Positions 15,313 to 64,000 of a DNA stretch of 64,000 nucleotides are shown in pieces. The notes beneath the pieces were generated by a model. That model was not told the origin of the DNA. It worked only from the letters and a program-made list of their open reading frames with translations, and searched no databases. Made by a program: the position numbers and the translations under genes. How positions within the stretch are numbered: the stretch's first letter is position 1; each line of letters opens with the position of its first letter. Source of the stretch: Candidatus Coprovivens sp. (lineage in GTDB: Bacteria > Bacillota_I > Bacilli_A > RF39 > UBA660); assembly GCA_051892935.1 (NCBI GenBank), contig JBJFGS010000025.1, positions 85,346 to 149,345 of the forward strand. The letters run 5' to 3'.

Positions 15313-16000
15313 GATAACCACTTCCATTATTAATTATATCATTAAAAACATAACTTGCGATACAAAAACCAGCAGCATTAGGCACAAAACTTACAGAACC
15401 AGGAGTTCTAGACTGAATCTTCCTAGGTAATTCTTGAGAACACAAAACAGGTAATTTATACTTAATGCCATTATCTCTCATCATCTTACGAATAACTTTA
15501 GCAACAGGATCATTCTGCGTTTTCCATATATTAGTAATCTCTAATTTAGTAGGATCAACTCTATTACCAGTACCCATACTACTAATAATTCTTATATTAT
15601 ATTGTAAAGCTTTCTTTATTAATAATAACTTTGTTGACATAGTATCACAACAATCAATAATATAATCAAACTTAGAATAATCTAAAACGTCAATATTAGC
15701 TTCATTTAAAAACATTTCATAAGAATCAACACTTATATCATGATTAATCAATTTAGCTCTTAAAGAAGCTTCATTTACTTTAGAACAACCTATATTATTA
15801 ATATTACACAATAATTGTCTATTTAAATTAGATTTACTAAATACATCACCATCTACTATAGTTAATCTCTTAATCCCCATTCTAACTAAAGCTTCAAAAC
15901 AAGCCCCACCTACTCCACCAACACCAACAATTAAAATATTACTATTACAAAAAGCATTCAGCTCATCATCACTAAAAAGTAATTTACAACGTTCCAACAT
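15305..16000 (-). CDS. tcdA: tRNA threonylcarbamoyladenosine dehydratase (ThiF family, YrvM-like)
   Basis: GVGGVG, SNLNRQ, IIDCCD, SSMGTG..DP, GSVSFVP; position between 6S RNA and rarA as in B. subtilis. Confidence 0.88.
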   Translation of the reverse strand: MLERCKLLFSDDELNAFCNSNILIVGVGGVGGACFEALVRMGIKRLTIVDGDVFSKSNLNRQLLCNINNIGCSKVNEASLRAKLINHDISVDSYEMFLNEANIDVLDYSKFDYIIDCCDTMSTKLLLIKKALQYNIRIISSMGTGNRVDPTKLEITNIWKTQNDPVAKVIRKMMRDNGIKYKLPVLCSQELPRKIQSRTPGSVSFVPNAAGFCIASYVFNDIINNGSGYHE

Positions 16001-61542: not shown

Positions 61543-62532
61543 TTACATACAAATTTTCATAATAAACATTTCTAAAGCTAATTTATTACTAATTCTGCCT
61601 CTTTTTATCTTATAATCTAAATCAGATAATAAAAGTAAATAATCCTCTAATTGCTTTTCCGAAAAAGAATAACAATTATTAATAAGTTTATCCATCTGAA
61701 AATCAAATCTAATACCCAAAGTATTCATCATATCCTTTTTGCTCTTAGACATCAACATTTTTTTTACTAATAGCATATTTCTTATTTCTTTAGCTAACAT
61801 ACTAAGTAACATAATTGGTTCTACTCTTTGAATCATCAAATCATCAAATATTTTAAAACTTTCCTTAATATCACGACTTATAATAGTATCAATAAATTTA
61901 AAATTATTATCTTCTATATTTTTACTAACAATATTAACTACATCATCATATTTAACTATACAACCTTTTCCATAATAGAGTTTAATTTTATCTACTTCAT
62001 TCATTGCTAAATCATAATTATTTAAAGCATTATTAACAATATAATAACCAGTATTACTATCAATTTTGTATCCATCTTCTTTTAAAGCATTTTCAATTCT
62101 AGAATATATTTCTTTTGGTTTCAAATCATCTATTTGAATAAATCTATATCTATCTTTAATTATTTTACATATTTTCTTCTTAGTATCAGCCTTACCATTT
62201 AAACAAAATATTAAAATCGTATTATTATTAGGTTCTTCTAAATATTTAAGTAGTTTTTCATCTTTCTTAGAAACAATATCTTCTTCACCATTATTATCAT
62301 CTTCTTTATTTTTTCTTTTAGAAGCAGCAAATATAGAAGCATTTTTTACTACCATATATTTCTTTTCATCAAATAATGAAAAATAAGCAGCTTCTTCCAA
62401 TACTTCATCAAGCTCAACAGAATTCAAATCAAAACTAGTATATTTATTATTTAAAACTACTTTTTTTATTTCTTCTTCCATCATACGATAACTATTGCTA
62501 CAAATAAGATATACATTATTCATAAAAACCAC
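61543..62532 (-). CDS. holA: DNA polymerase III delta subunit
   Basis: SLFDEKK, LLKYLEEP, NEVDKIKLY, DYKIKRG...LALE.F. Confidence 0.9.
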   Translation of the reverse strand: MVFMNNVYLICSNSYRMMEEEIKKVVLNNKYTSFDLNSVELDEVLEEAAYFSLFDEKKYMVVKNASIFAASKRKNKEDDNNGEEDIVSKKDEKLLKYLEEPNNNTILIFCLNGKADTKKKICKIIKDRYRFIQIDDLKPKEIYSRIENALKEDGYKIDSNTGYYIVNNALNNYDLAMNEVDKIKLYYGKGCIVKYDDVVNIVSKNIEDNNFKFIDTIISRDIKESFKIFDDLMIQRVEPIMLLSMLAKEIRNMLLVKKMLMSKSKKDMMNTLGIRFDFQMDKLINNCYSFSEKQLEDYLLLLSDLDYKIKRGRISNKLALEMFIMKICM

Positions 62533-62680
62533 CTTGATATATATTATAGCAAAAAAATACCATCAAACAAAGAAAGAAGAATATTCTTCTTCCAATTTAT
62601 CTAAACATCATATGATGGAACTACTATATTCTATGTTACAATACCAACATATGTGTCTTAAATTAAAATATTACAAAAAA

Positions 62681-63304
62681 CTAATTTTTTATTAATTTTT
62701 TATTATTTGTATATTTTAAATCTTGATAATCCCCCGTTTTTGAATATACCTTATATCCATGATTCTGACGCCATTTTTTTCTTTCTTCTTTAGGCATTAT
62801 CATTACTTCTTCTGCCACATCCATATGAAGTATACCATCTAGGTGATCAAGTTCATGTGATAAAACTGTAGAAGGAAAGCCTTCAAAACTTTCTATACGT
62901 TTAACACCATCAACATCATAATATTCTAAATCAATTTTATATGGTCTAAGCACCCTACCACAGTTATCTAAACAACTAGCACACGCTTCCCAATATTCAG
63001 TTAAACCTTCTCTATTTATAACAACAGGATTAATCAATACTTTAGCCTCATTATATTGTTCTTCTTCTGAAGAAGTTGAATTAGTTTGCATTTTATTAAT
63101 AATCTCTAAGTTAGTATTTTTTAAATATATAATTCTTTTAGGAATACCAAGTTGAACAGCAGCCATAGCCATTACACTATGTTCTTTACAAAAAGTATCT
63201 AATACATTAATGTTACTTAGTAATTCCTTATCATTTGTAATATCAACTTCACTTGAAACTTGTCTCAAAAATTCCAAATTGTCATCTATAGTAATTGATT
63301 TCAT
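62681..63304 (-). CDS. def: Peptide deformylase (divergent motifs)
   Basis: AMAAVQLG, LINP, EACAS, HELDHLDGIL. Confidence 0.88.
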   Translation of the reverse strand: MKSITIDDNLEFLRQVSSEVDITNDKELLSNINVLDTFCKEHSVMAMAAVQLGIPKRIIYLKNTNLEIINKMQTNSTSSEEEQYNEAKVLINPVVINREGLTEYWEACASCLDNCGRVLRPYKIDLEYYDVDGVKRIESFEGFPSTVLSHELDHLDGILHMDVAEEVMIMPKEERKKWRQNHGYKVYSKTGDYQDLKYTNNKKLIKN

Positions 63305-63409
63305 TTAATCACTCCCTATAAAACATTATATCACGTATAATGTTGAACATAAAGATTTCAATTTTCAAAATTTGATTTCTTTTTGTTTTTTGTTATTATA
63401 ACAAACATC

Positions 63410-63572
63410 GGTAAAGACGGATTATATCAGGCACTTCGAGTGCGTTTTTATGAATGTCTTCCATATAATTATTTATTAATTCGGTTGTAGATAATGGAAA
63501 CTAACAAAATTGTTAGAGTTCGGATGATTAAGCGTGTAGGAATATAGGTAATTCAATATGGTGTTAACCGAA
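63410..63572 (+). ncRNA. Putative IS110 bridge RNA
   Basis: Stem AAGAC(63414-18)/GTCTT(63456-60) encloses an internal loop capped by GCAC-TTCGA-GTGC; loop strand ATTATATCA equals the host flank at 63325-63333. A second domain is closed by TTCGGTT/AACCGAA. RNA boundaries are approximate. Confidence 0.72.
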
Positions 63573-63594
63573 ATTTTAACGAAAGGAGAAATTT

Positions 63595-64000
63595 ATGAAA
63601 CATATTTTAAGTTTTGATATTGCTAAAGGAAAAAGTGTTTATTGTTTGATTGATGAACTAAAAAATATTATTATTGAACCTACTTTAATTGAACACAACA
63701 AAATTGAATTTGATAATTTATTTAATCTAGTCAAAGATTATCTTAACTTAATCGTTGTGATGGAATCTACTTCTATTTATCATTTACCTGTAGAAAATTA
63801 TTTTAGATCTAAAGCTATTGATACCATTATTATGAATCCTAAACTTGTTAAACAATTTAAAGACACTTTAAATAAATCTAAAACAGATAAATTAGATTGT
63901 TTTAAAATTGCTAGATGTTATTTAGGTACTATTGATAATTTCTATTATAAAAACGATGAGTATTTTATGTATAACCCACTTGCTAGACAATATTGGTCAT
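63595..64000 (+). CDS. IS110-family recombinase/transposase (partial)
   Basis: GAAAGGAG RBS; MKHILSFDIAKGKS..VVMESTSIYH..MNP..KSKTDKLDCFKIA contains the RuvC-like D-E-D-D residues. Not in the ORF track because it runs off the edge. Confidence 0.9.
   Translation, partial: MKHILSFDIAKGKSVYCLIDELKNIIIEPTLIEHNKIEFDNLFNLVKDYLNLIVVMESTSIYHLPVENYFRSKAIDTIIMNPKLVKQFKDTLNKSKTDKLDCFKIARCYLGTIDNFYYKNDEYFMYNPLARQYWS

Follow-up and report, generated by a model that had tools for sequence, protein, structure and literature searches.

An insertion sequence (IS) that lies in the promoter of a generally essential gene raises the question of how it was directed there and what became of the expression of the gene. 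The gene in this case is def, which encodes peptide deformylase (62681-63304, - strand), in the 64,000-nt stretch of Candidatus Coprovivens sp. analysed here (assembly GCA_051892935.1, contig JBJFGS010000025.1, positions 85,346 to 149,345; the window). Directly upstream of the -10 region of def lie the left 666 nt of an IS110-family element (63334-63999, + strand), whose whole length is ~1.54 kb and whose remainder lies beyond the contig end, the end of the window being the end of contig C25 of a 1.8-Mb draft genome (G000; 53 contigs, 26% G+C). We consider it very probable that this IS moves by bridge-RNA-guided recombination of the IS621 type and that it is aimed at the extended -10 element of host promoters.

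Element boundaries and the uninterrupted def promoter

Three left ends of the element were recovered in G000, on C25 (the window copy), C18 and C39, and these are alike from ATTATATCA rightwards and unrelated to the left of it. Because all three share this 9-mer, the G000 copies alone cannot separate a conserved target from an element end; the C18 and C39 contigs end after 92 and 53 nt, so that their loops are not readable. Two right ends were found (C15 and C50) and no third one in G000, and the interior of the element is unassembled there since contigs under about 1.5 kb are missing. We therefore turned to relatives. A relative 79% identical and present at full length occurs in a genome of another genus (G031), where it encodes a 395-aa transposase with the domains PF01548 (E 5.2e-26) and PF02371 (Transposase_20, E 5.9e-17). 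The G031 copies are flanked by ATTATAT-CA and ATTATAC-CA and, over the compared stretch, do not differ from one another once past the CA, and their right end is homologous to the sequence common to the contig ends C15 and C50 of G000, TTGACAAAACTTAGATAAT-CA. Full-length relatives measure 1533-1549 bp between the two cores.

The def promoter without the element, which the preliminary description had proposed as a check, could be obtained from metagenome contigs and carries a single CA before insertion. In Logan contigs of two pig-gut or gut runs (X1 and X2), in which the def 5' region is ~98% identical to that of the window (11 differences in 481 bases for X1), the empty allele reads ATTATAT-CA-TATATTTTTATTAC; the sequence that follows the CA there, without the element, is TATATTTTTATTACACCTC. 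In two more diverged runs (X3 and X4) the empty site reads ATTATAC-CA-TATAC. An empty site was not obtained from species-level relatives, the def proteins of the genus being at most 60% identical. The right end carried by the terminal part of contig C50 continues into CA-TATATTTTTATTACA, and since this right flank matches the empty allele, C50 is the other side of the window copy. The host site is ATTATAT-CA-TATAT and the element starts at 63334, with a single CA core when the site is empty and one at each junction when it is occupied. No terminal inverted repeat was noticed in the end sequences examined by eye, and no dedicated repeat search was made.

Target guides and their covariation with the flanks

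The non-coding left end contains a target-binding loop (63414-63460, + strand), closed by the stem AAGAC (63414-18)/GTCTT (63456-60) and carrying a capping hairpin (63431-43) formed by GCAC (63431-34) and GTGC (63440-43). The 5' strand of the loop holds the left target guide (LTG) ATTATATCA (63421-29), which equals the host flank at 63325-33, that is, the left target (LT) ATTATAT (63325-31) followed by the core CA (63332-33), at 9/9 positions. The 3' strand holds the right target guide (RTG) TTTTATG (63446-52), of which TG pairs with the core. The letters and positions that the preliminary description had given for the loop, stem, hairpin, guides and TATAAT were all verified in the sequence. 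A single match of this kind is weak evidence by itself, because the 9-mer is common, with 217 occurrences on both strands of the 1.8-Mb genome (~0.06 per kb per strand) and 4 on the window's + strand.

The evidence that carries the assignment is covariation. Among 23 homologous pairs of LTG and LT, the two sequences agree in 21, 21, 21, 23, 23, 21 and 18 cases at the seven successive positions. At position 2 a guide with G (AGTATAACA) is accompanied by a flank with G in 4/5 cases, and T occurs with T 17 times; at position 7 a guide with T is accompanied by a flank with T in 5/5 cases. The proposal that the identity of LTG and host flank exceeds chance is thus borne out by flanks that change with the guide at positions 2 and 7. 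The same was seen on the right side, where the RTG and the first five positions of the right target (RT1-5) agreed in 78/110 comparisons over 22 pairs, as against 53.3 ± 5.5 when the flanks were permuted among the elements, and none of 20,000 permutations reached this value. RT1-2 account for 38/44 matches, and RT3-6 taken alone still gave 51/88 matches as against 34.1 ± 5.2 (p = 0.0006). Guide/target covariation across homologues, which had been suggested as a further check, was in this way found for both guides. In one relative with 39% identity (L093, G184:C8) the two target strands of the loop are changed to AAATTACA and CAAATTG, and the flanks are changed likewise, to AAATTA-CA and CA-ATTT; judged from these sequences, it looks like a natural retargeting away from the -10 motif.

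Insertion sites lie in promoter position

The opposite strand of LT plus core reads TGnTATAAT, the extended -10 element. The preliminary description had proposed this consensus as the target and had expected the motif to recur at the flanks of further copies. We examined 42 distinct left junctions covering 36-100% transposase identity, 29 from close relatives and G000 and 13 from distant elements. The count of 29 leaves aside four junctions with flanks under 40 nt (L038, L039, L045 and L048, with the LTs ATTATAA, ATTATAA, ATTATAT and AGTATAA, respectively), and four further elements (L029, L042, L043 and L051) are without a left flank. The expectation was confirmed, since exact TGnTATAAT adjoins 33 of the 42 junctions (24/29 close, 9/13 distant). 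An open reading frame (ORF) starts within 47 nt on the opposite strand at 34 of the 42 (26/29 close, 8/13 distant). In these 26 close cases a long ORF has its first start codon at a distance of 13-47 nt from the T of TG, on the strand that reads away from the element. In the distant set, which has 36-43% transposase identity and comes from several families of the class, 8 of the 9 junctions with the exact motif have an ORF start, at 19-39 nt.

The motif is itself linked to promoters in G000. Of its 602 copies in the genome, 285 lie within 100 nt upstream of an ORF start on the same strand, and 346 (57%) lie outside ORFs, though 89% of the genome is taken up by ORFs of 100 aa or more; five control words with a comparable composition have only 12-19% of their copies outside ORFs. 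The label sigma-A for these promoters is one that we infer from the fact that the genomes belong to the class Bacilli. A TRTG motif, the '-16' region, lies upstream of extended -10 elements. At the promoter-positioned copies of TGnTATAAT in G000 the two preceding bases are most often T (0.70) and A (0.58), and among 306 such sites the words ahead of the -10 are TATG (118), TTTG (50), AATG (41) and TGTG (39). The commonest starts of the RTG (TA, CA, AA and TT) are the complements of TATG, TGTG, TTTG and AATG. The -35 region of the same promoters shows only a weak T-rich signal.

For the 14-mer specified by both guides of the window element, the draft genome contains 9 perfect sites and 67 with one mismatch. 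Three near-cognate sites had been listed in the window, at 15333, 41401 and 49794; they are present as written, and within 35 nt to the left of each there is a CAT, which is a start codon in reverse complement.

Fold of the left end, donor guides and junction promoter

Left ends of 26 elements were aligned (mean column identity 84%) and folded with RNAalifold. The structure was taken from this alignment because the fold of the single sequence does not show the loops: it is better than that of shuffles (z = -2.7), but the guide strands pair with each other in it. The consensus fold consists of a 5' stem-loop, an outer stem (63408-12/63567-71), the target-binding loop described above and a longer, donor-binding loop (63460-63562) on a long stem (63460-76/63544-62). 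Over the 47 pairs that were kept, with the inner hairpin of the donor loop left out of the counts because the alignment is gapped there, 97.7% of the cells are paired; sliding the 3' partner by 1-3 columns lowers this share to 35-49%. The helices contain 34 doubly changed cells, whereas shuffles give 11.4 ± 2.6. Compensatory change in the capping hairpin of the target-binding loop is seen in 14/26 sequences. An Rfam scan of positions 62000-64000 with E values up to 10 returned only a chance match to a plastid 3'UTR family. The alignment fold and the guide covariation together support the earlier assignment of the left end as an IS621-type bridge RNA with its target-binding loop at 63414-63460; that the RNA is made and used by the recombinase is predicted.

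The second loop matches the ends of the element. Its left donor guide (LDG) TAGATAAT (63488-95, + strand) is the same as the final 8 nt of the right end, and its right donor guide (RDG) ATTAAGCGTG (63527-36, + strand) contains CGTG, which is the core and the two IS bases next to it in reverse complement. The RDG changes together with the right donor (RD): depending on whether the element begins with CG, TG or TA behind the core, its loop carries CGTG, CATG or TATG, respectively, in 26/26 cases. The left end further carries TATAAT at 63336-63341 (+ strand), which the preliminary description had noted as a -10 box following the core, and a partner TTGACA (-35) was found 13 nt from the right end. 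With the 2-nt core and the 2 nt before TATAAT, joining of the ends would give a 17-nt spacer, so that a promoter is predicted to be rebuilt across the junction of right end and left end (RE-LE) in the circular form, TATAAT being its -10 half.

A candidate transcription-start signal also lies within the left end. The 5' stem-loop with its following T-run (63345-63388, + strand; RNAalifold helices in columns 14-24/49-60 and 28-32/41-45) looks like a terminator placed just before, and partly overlapping, an internal promoter-like site, which comprises TTGATT, 16 nt and TATTAT preceded by TG (63372-63399, + strand) and includes the word TGTTATTAT. Its element TGnTAT(T/G/C)AT was read by eye in all 26 rows of the alignment, and the site could transcribe both loops and the transposase from an integrated copy.

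Guide conservation and alternative explanations

The two halves of the target guide differ in how they are conserved. Among the 26 left ends the LTG occurs in 4 variants with a mean pairwise identity of 0.91, whereas the six non-core positions of the RTG occur in 15 variants with an identity of 0.51, the whole left end having 0.83. The LTG stays ATTATA(A/T)CA down to 36% transposase identity, and its near-fixation is what one would expect of selection for this target. Homologues with at most 32% identity have other guides and other flanks, an example being L101 with TTTGTAT-CA-AACCT, which matches its own loop.

The identity of loop and flank might be thought a coincidence of AT-rich DNA, with hairpins that are no guide RNA, and the abundance of the 9-mer in the genome and the lack of any Rfam family for the region speak for this; set against it are the joint variation of the LTG, RTG and RDG and their partners in the DNA (23 pairs, 22 pairs and 26/26), the compensatory changes in the stems and the joint change of guides and flanks in L093, and the guide-flank pattern was also read by eye in the 13 distant elements. 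Equally, ATTATATCA could be the terminal sequence of the element itself and the first loop its donor-binding loop, as the sharing of the 9-mer by all three G000 copies would suggest, since from this genome alone the repeat boundary seems to be at 63325. Yet the 9-mer is present once in def-promoter alleles free of the IS, position 7 is T or C between copies of the otherwise identical G031 element, and it is a separate loop that matches the true ends, its RDG covarying in 26/26 with the bases after CA. Both of these accounts are excluded for practical purposes by the covarying guides and flanks, the empty allele and L093. It is also very improbable, if slightly less so, that the LTG is kept for an outward TGnTATAAT promoter of the element and that its match to the host is a by-product. 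Such a promoter word does exist in the element, where TGATATAAT is present at 63429-63421 (- strand), 96 nt upstream of that of the host, but flanks covary with the LTG at positions 2 and 7, so that the LTG acts in target choice.

A more substantial alternative, which we nevertheless regard as unlikely, is that the element recognises a common AT-rich word of 9-11 nt and that the promoter position of its copies stems mainly from selection against intragenic insertions. As many as 256 of the 602 TGnTATAAT copies lie inside ORFs, yet only about 8 of the 42 junctions are without a nearby ORF start; the loose matches at RT3-6 would permit many sites. Some filtering after insertion is needed because of these intragenic copies and because the share of promoter-positioned junctions (34/42) exceeds that of the motif copies (285/602; binomial p = 8e-6, with the baseline from one genome). 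Against filtering as the main cause, the motif is itself linked to promoters far more than the control words are, the LTG is near-constant from 100% to 36% transposase identity while the adjoining RTG changes freely, and the preferred RTG starts correspond to the four commonest words before the host -10. The excess means that selection after insertion also shapes the pattern or that the RTG adds a preference, and the pattern arises from both targeting and selection.

Guidance to the extended -10 element remains the reading that we favour, and apart from the excess just described several further observations weigh against it. The RTG of the window element predicts CA-TAAAA(A) and the real right target is CA-TATAT. 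The preliminary description had predicted TAAAA after CA; of this prediction the core, RT1, RT2 and RT4 hold, and the rest does not agree with the TATAT of the empty allele and the C50 flank. The other right flank in G000, TATAG, likewise agrees with the RTG at 3/5 positions. Under the IS621 rule, in which the RTG is 4 nt long (core + 2), the def site is matched at 11/11 positions, and the match is partial if the RTG has the greater length suggested by the homologues. Between the LDG and the right end the match extends for 8 nt, and the next two bases of the guide are GG and not the core CA. Covariation of the handshake guides of the kind described for IS621, judged by eye, fits L038 only. Nine of the 42 junctions are without exact TGnTATAAT: four have TGnTATACT with a covarying guide (three of them in the close set, with the guide AGTATAACA), L052 is shifted by one CA too many, L046, L092 and L117 match poorly or in part, and L093 is retargeted. 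Finally, the homologous sites come from metagenome-assembled genomes, in which repeats can be misjoined, and some left and right flanks of the set may not belong to the same copy.

Two of these junctions deserve a description of their own. The left junction of L052 reads ATTATAT-CA-CA before the element, with one core dinucleotide in excess. The L092 copy (G111:C1) lies at a poor guide match inside an apparent IS110 transposase ORF (..IFMESTST) and may be a nested or off-target insertion.

The def locus, the transposase and other repeats of the genome

The def ORF encodes 207 aa (Pfam PF01327, E 5e-29) and is the sole match to def in G000 at E 1e-20 or better. Its 5' region on the - strand consists of the host extended -10 element TGATATAAT (63325-63333), which is host DNA in the empty alleles, 7 nt, AGGGAGTG and the ATG, with the Shine-Dalgarno sequence GGGAGTG (63310-63316) placed 5 nt upstream of the ATG at 63304. 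The element starts directly upstream of the TG, in agreement with the earlier statement that the def promoter is its site and that TGATATAAT is kept intact. TGnTATAAT just upstream of the ribosome-binding site was also found at 9/18 def loci of genus relatives. The gene that precedes def in 13 of these 18 loci has its orthologue in the middle of a G000 contig (C36:74300-76330), where no def follows; for this reason either def has been relocated in G000 or its synteny is not conserved.

The element carries two more leftward TGnTATAAT words, its own LTG (63421-63429, - strand) and TGTTATAAT (63403-63395, - strand). Both lie within 105 nt upstream of the retained host -10, and the TG of the TGTTATAAT word is not kept in all homologues. 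Elsewhere in the window, ATTATAGCA at 62543-62551 (TGCTATAAT on the - strand) is placed 11 nt upstream of the GTG that opens a DNA polymerase III delta-like ORF (61543-62532, - strand). Outside the element, the + strand of the window has 12 further ATTATANCA words, of which this is one.

Downstream of the loops, the window holds the N-terminal 135 aa of the IS110 transposase, with the DEDD (RuvC-like) domain (63595-63999, + strand; PF01548, E 4.7e-16), in a frame that is open at the contig end; this part is 81% identical to the G031 transposase. Matches of the recombinase among Protein Data Bank (PDB) entries were ISCro4 (E 7.9e-8) and IS621 (E 4.5e-6; phmmer). As to the catalytic D, E, D, D and Ser residues, the ISCro4 alignment covers the motif pairs MESTS/MEATS, KTDKID/KTDAVD and SGAS/SGSS, and the first Asp (SFDIAKG) is outside the aligned stretch and was placed by eye only. 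A second IS110-family transposase of G000 is present on contig C6 (L001), as a 447-aa open frame with PF01548 (E 8.7e-23) and no nucleotide similarity to the window element.

Two other repeats were seen at contig ends of G000. At least 16 ends (on C10, C17, C20, C31, C33, C24, C5, C2, C14, C43, C42, C41 and C47) show a repeat with the terminal inverted repeats CAGAGTGT[A/C/T]GACAAA, which always begins directly after a hairpin and T-run and, by its sequence context, may be an element that inserts just behind terminators. A third repeat occurs at six ends (C16, C2, C22, C20, C4 and C29), and both its ends share TATAAAT.G.A...TAAGTGTCCG.

Relation to known systems

Bridge-RNA- or seekRNA-type targets are known to include integron attC sites. 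IS900, IS901 and IS902 of Mycobacterium avium, which belong to the IS110 family, insert in one orientation between ribosome-binding site and start codon. The IS900 type is the nearest analogy, differing in that a translational signal and not the -10 is concerned and in the host group, and PMC8141618 gives no target consensus for it.

The IS621 bridge RNA is composed of a 5' stem-loop, a target-binding loop and a donor-binding loop, according to two reports (PMC11208160, PMC11208158), and in the first of these the RTG has 4 nt (core + 2) and a sigma70-type promoter is rebuilt at the RE-LE junction. The element studied here shares with IS621 the DEDD/Tnp recombinase, a predicted RNA encoded in the left end, with a 5' stem-loop and two internal loops, an LTG equal to LT plus core, an RTG complementary to core plus RT, an 8-nt LDG, a discontinuous-looking RDG and a 2-nt core at both junctions. 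It differs in its core (CA here, CT in IS621), in a distant recombinase, and in its target, which is a core promoter element here and a repetitive extragenic palindromic (REP) sequence in IS621; in addition, the RTG apparently reads ~6 bases past the core here as against 2 in IS621, and the LDG does not match the core, unlike that of IS621. By its domains, the two-loop RNA, the four relations of guides to DNA, the core and the predicted junction promoter, the element agrees with the IS621-type bridge-RNA elements as far as can be read from its sequence.

Other members of the family also have conserved targets. ISPpu9 and ISPpu10 of Pseudomonas putida target REP or another intergenic repeat (PMC12288879, bioRxiv 10.64898/2026.03.19.712850), ISEc21 targets conserved codons of IS3-family transposase genes (bioRxiv 10.1101/2024.04.26.591405), and IS4321/IS5075 target the inverted repeats of the Tn21 family (cited in PMC11208160). 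ISPpu9 and ISPpu10 are thus like the present element in family and in having one conserved, repeated intergenic target, which in their case is not a promoter motif. The IS1111 group with its seekRNA shares RNA-guided DEDD transposases and conserved functional targets; it differs in that the guide RNA lies downstream of the transposase gene, and no promoter target is named for it in the accessible portions of the sources. Nor is a promoter named as a natural IS110 target in the accessible portions of PMC11208160, PMC11208158, 10.1101/2024.04.26.591405, 10.64898/2026.08.14.744561 and 10.64898/2026.08.31.748434. In full-text searches of the literature we found no description of an IS110 or bridge-RNA element aimed at a -10 promoter element, although the supplementary target tables (PMC11208160 Supplementary Data 2), which were beyond our reach, may list the motif.

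Proposed mechanism and implications

By analogy with IS621, the element, once circular, would join the right-end TTGACA to the left-end TATAAT and transcribe the bridge RNA from the resulting promoter. The second loop of this RNA would hold the RE-LE junction and the first loop the host site, and the recombinase would exchange strands at the core. The LTG together with the core would direct the element to the TGnTATAAT of housekeeping promoters, and the RTG bases next to the core (mostly YA) would add the TRTG '-16' motif. Insertion is at the boundary of promoter spacer and TG and has one orientation, in which the transposase gene points off from that of the host. The LTG, near-fixed over a deep clade, would keep the element on promoters, and the varying RTG would bias the choice among them.

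After such an insertion TGnTATAAT would be retained, and the left end would take the place of everything upstream of the TG. Since TGnTATAAT promoters in G000 have a weak -35 signal, the host gene probably stays expressed, with which the copy before the generally essential def would fit. We infer that sites in promoters with a weak -35 are tolerated as 'safe harbours'. With somewhat better than even confidence we suggest that in low-G+C gut Bacilli a deep clade of such elements has one half of its guide hard-wired to the -10, which the host could not mutate away, and the other half fast-evolving, and that hundreds of tolerated sites would be open to it. The result would be an RNA-guided rewiring of promoters, in which the leftward TGnTATAAT words and the internal promoter may add transcription into the neighbouring gene.

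The finding reaches well past one locus, and what distinguishes the element is a fixed guide half set to the extended -10 promoter element. Elsewhere in the literature that we consulted the targets are repeats or mobile DNA; here the target is one core part of the host gene-expression machinery. The logic would be that of a safe harbour: a target that lies upstream of hundreds of genes, is strongly constrained in the host and is intact after insertion. The division of the guide into fixed and hypervariable halves bears on the length of guide that is needed, a question raised in the 'half-match' preprint, and breaks of draft assemblies at promoters in these genomes may mark copies of the element. 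If the mechanism is true, the element uncouples genes from their upstream regulatory DNA, and it would offer a natural system for studying how RNA-guided IS reshape regulation by swapping the DNA upstream of the -10.

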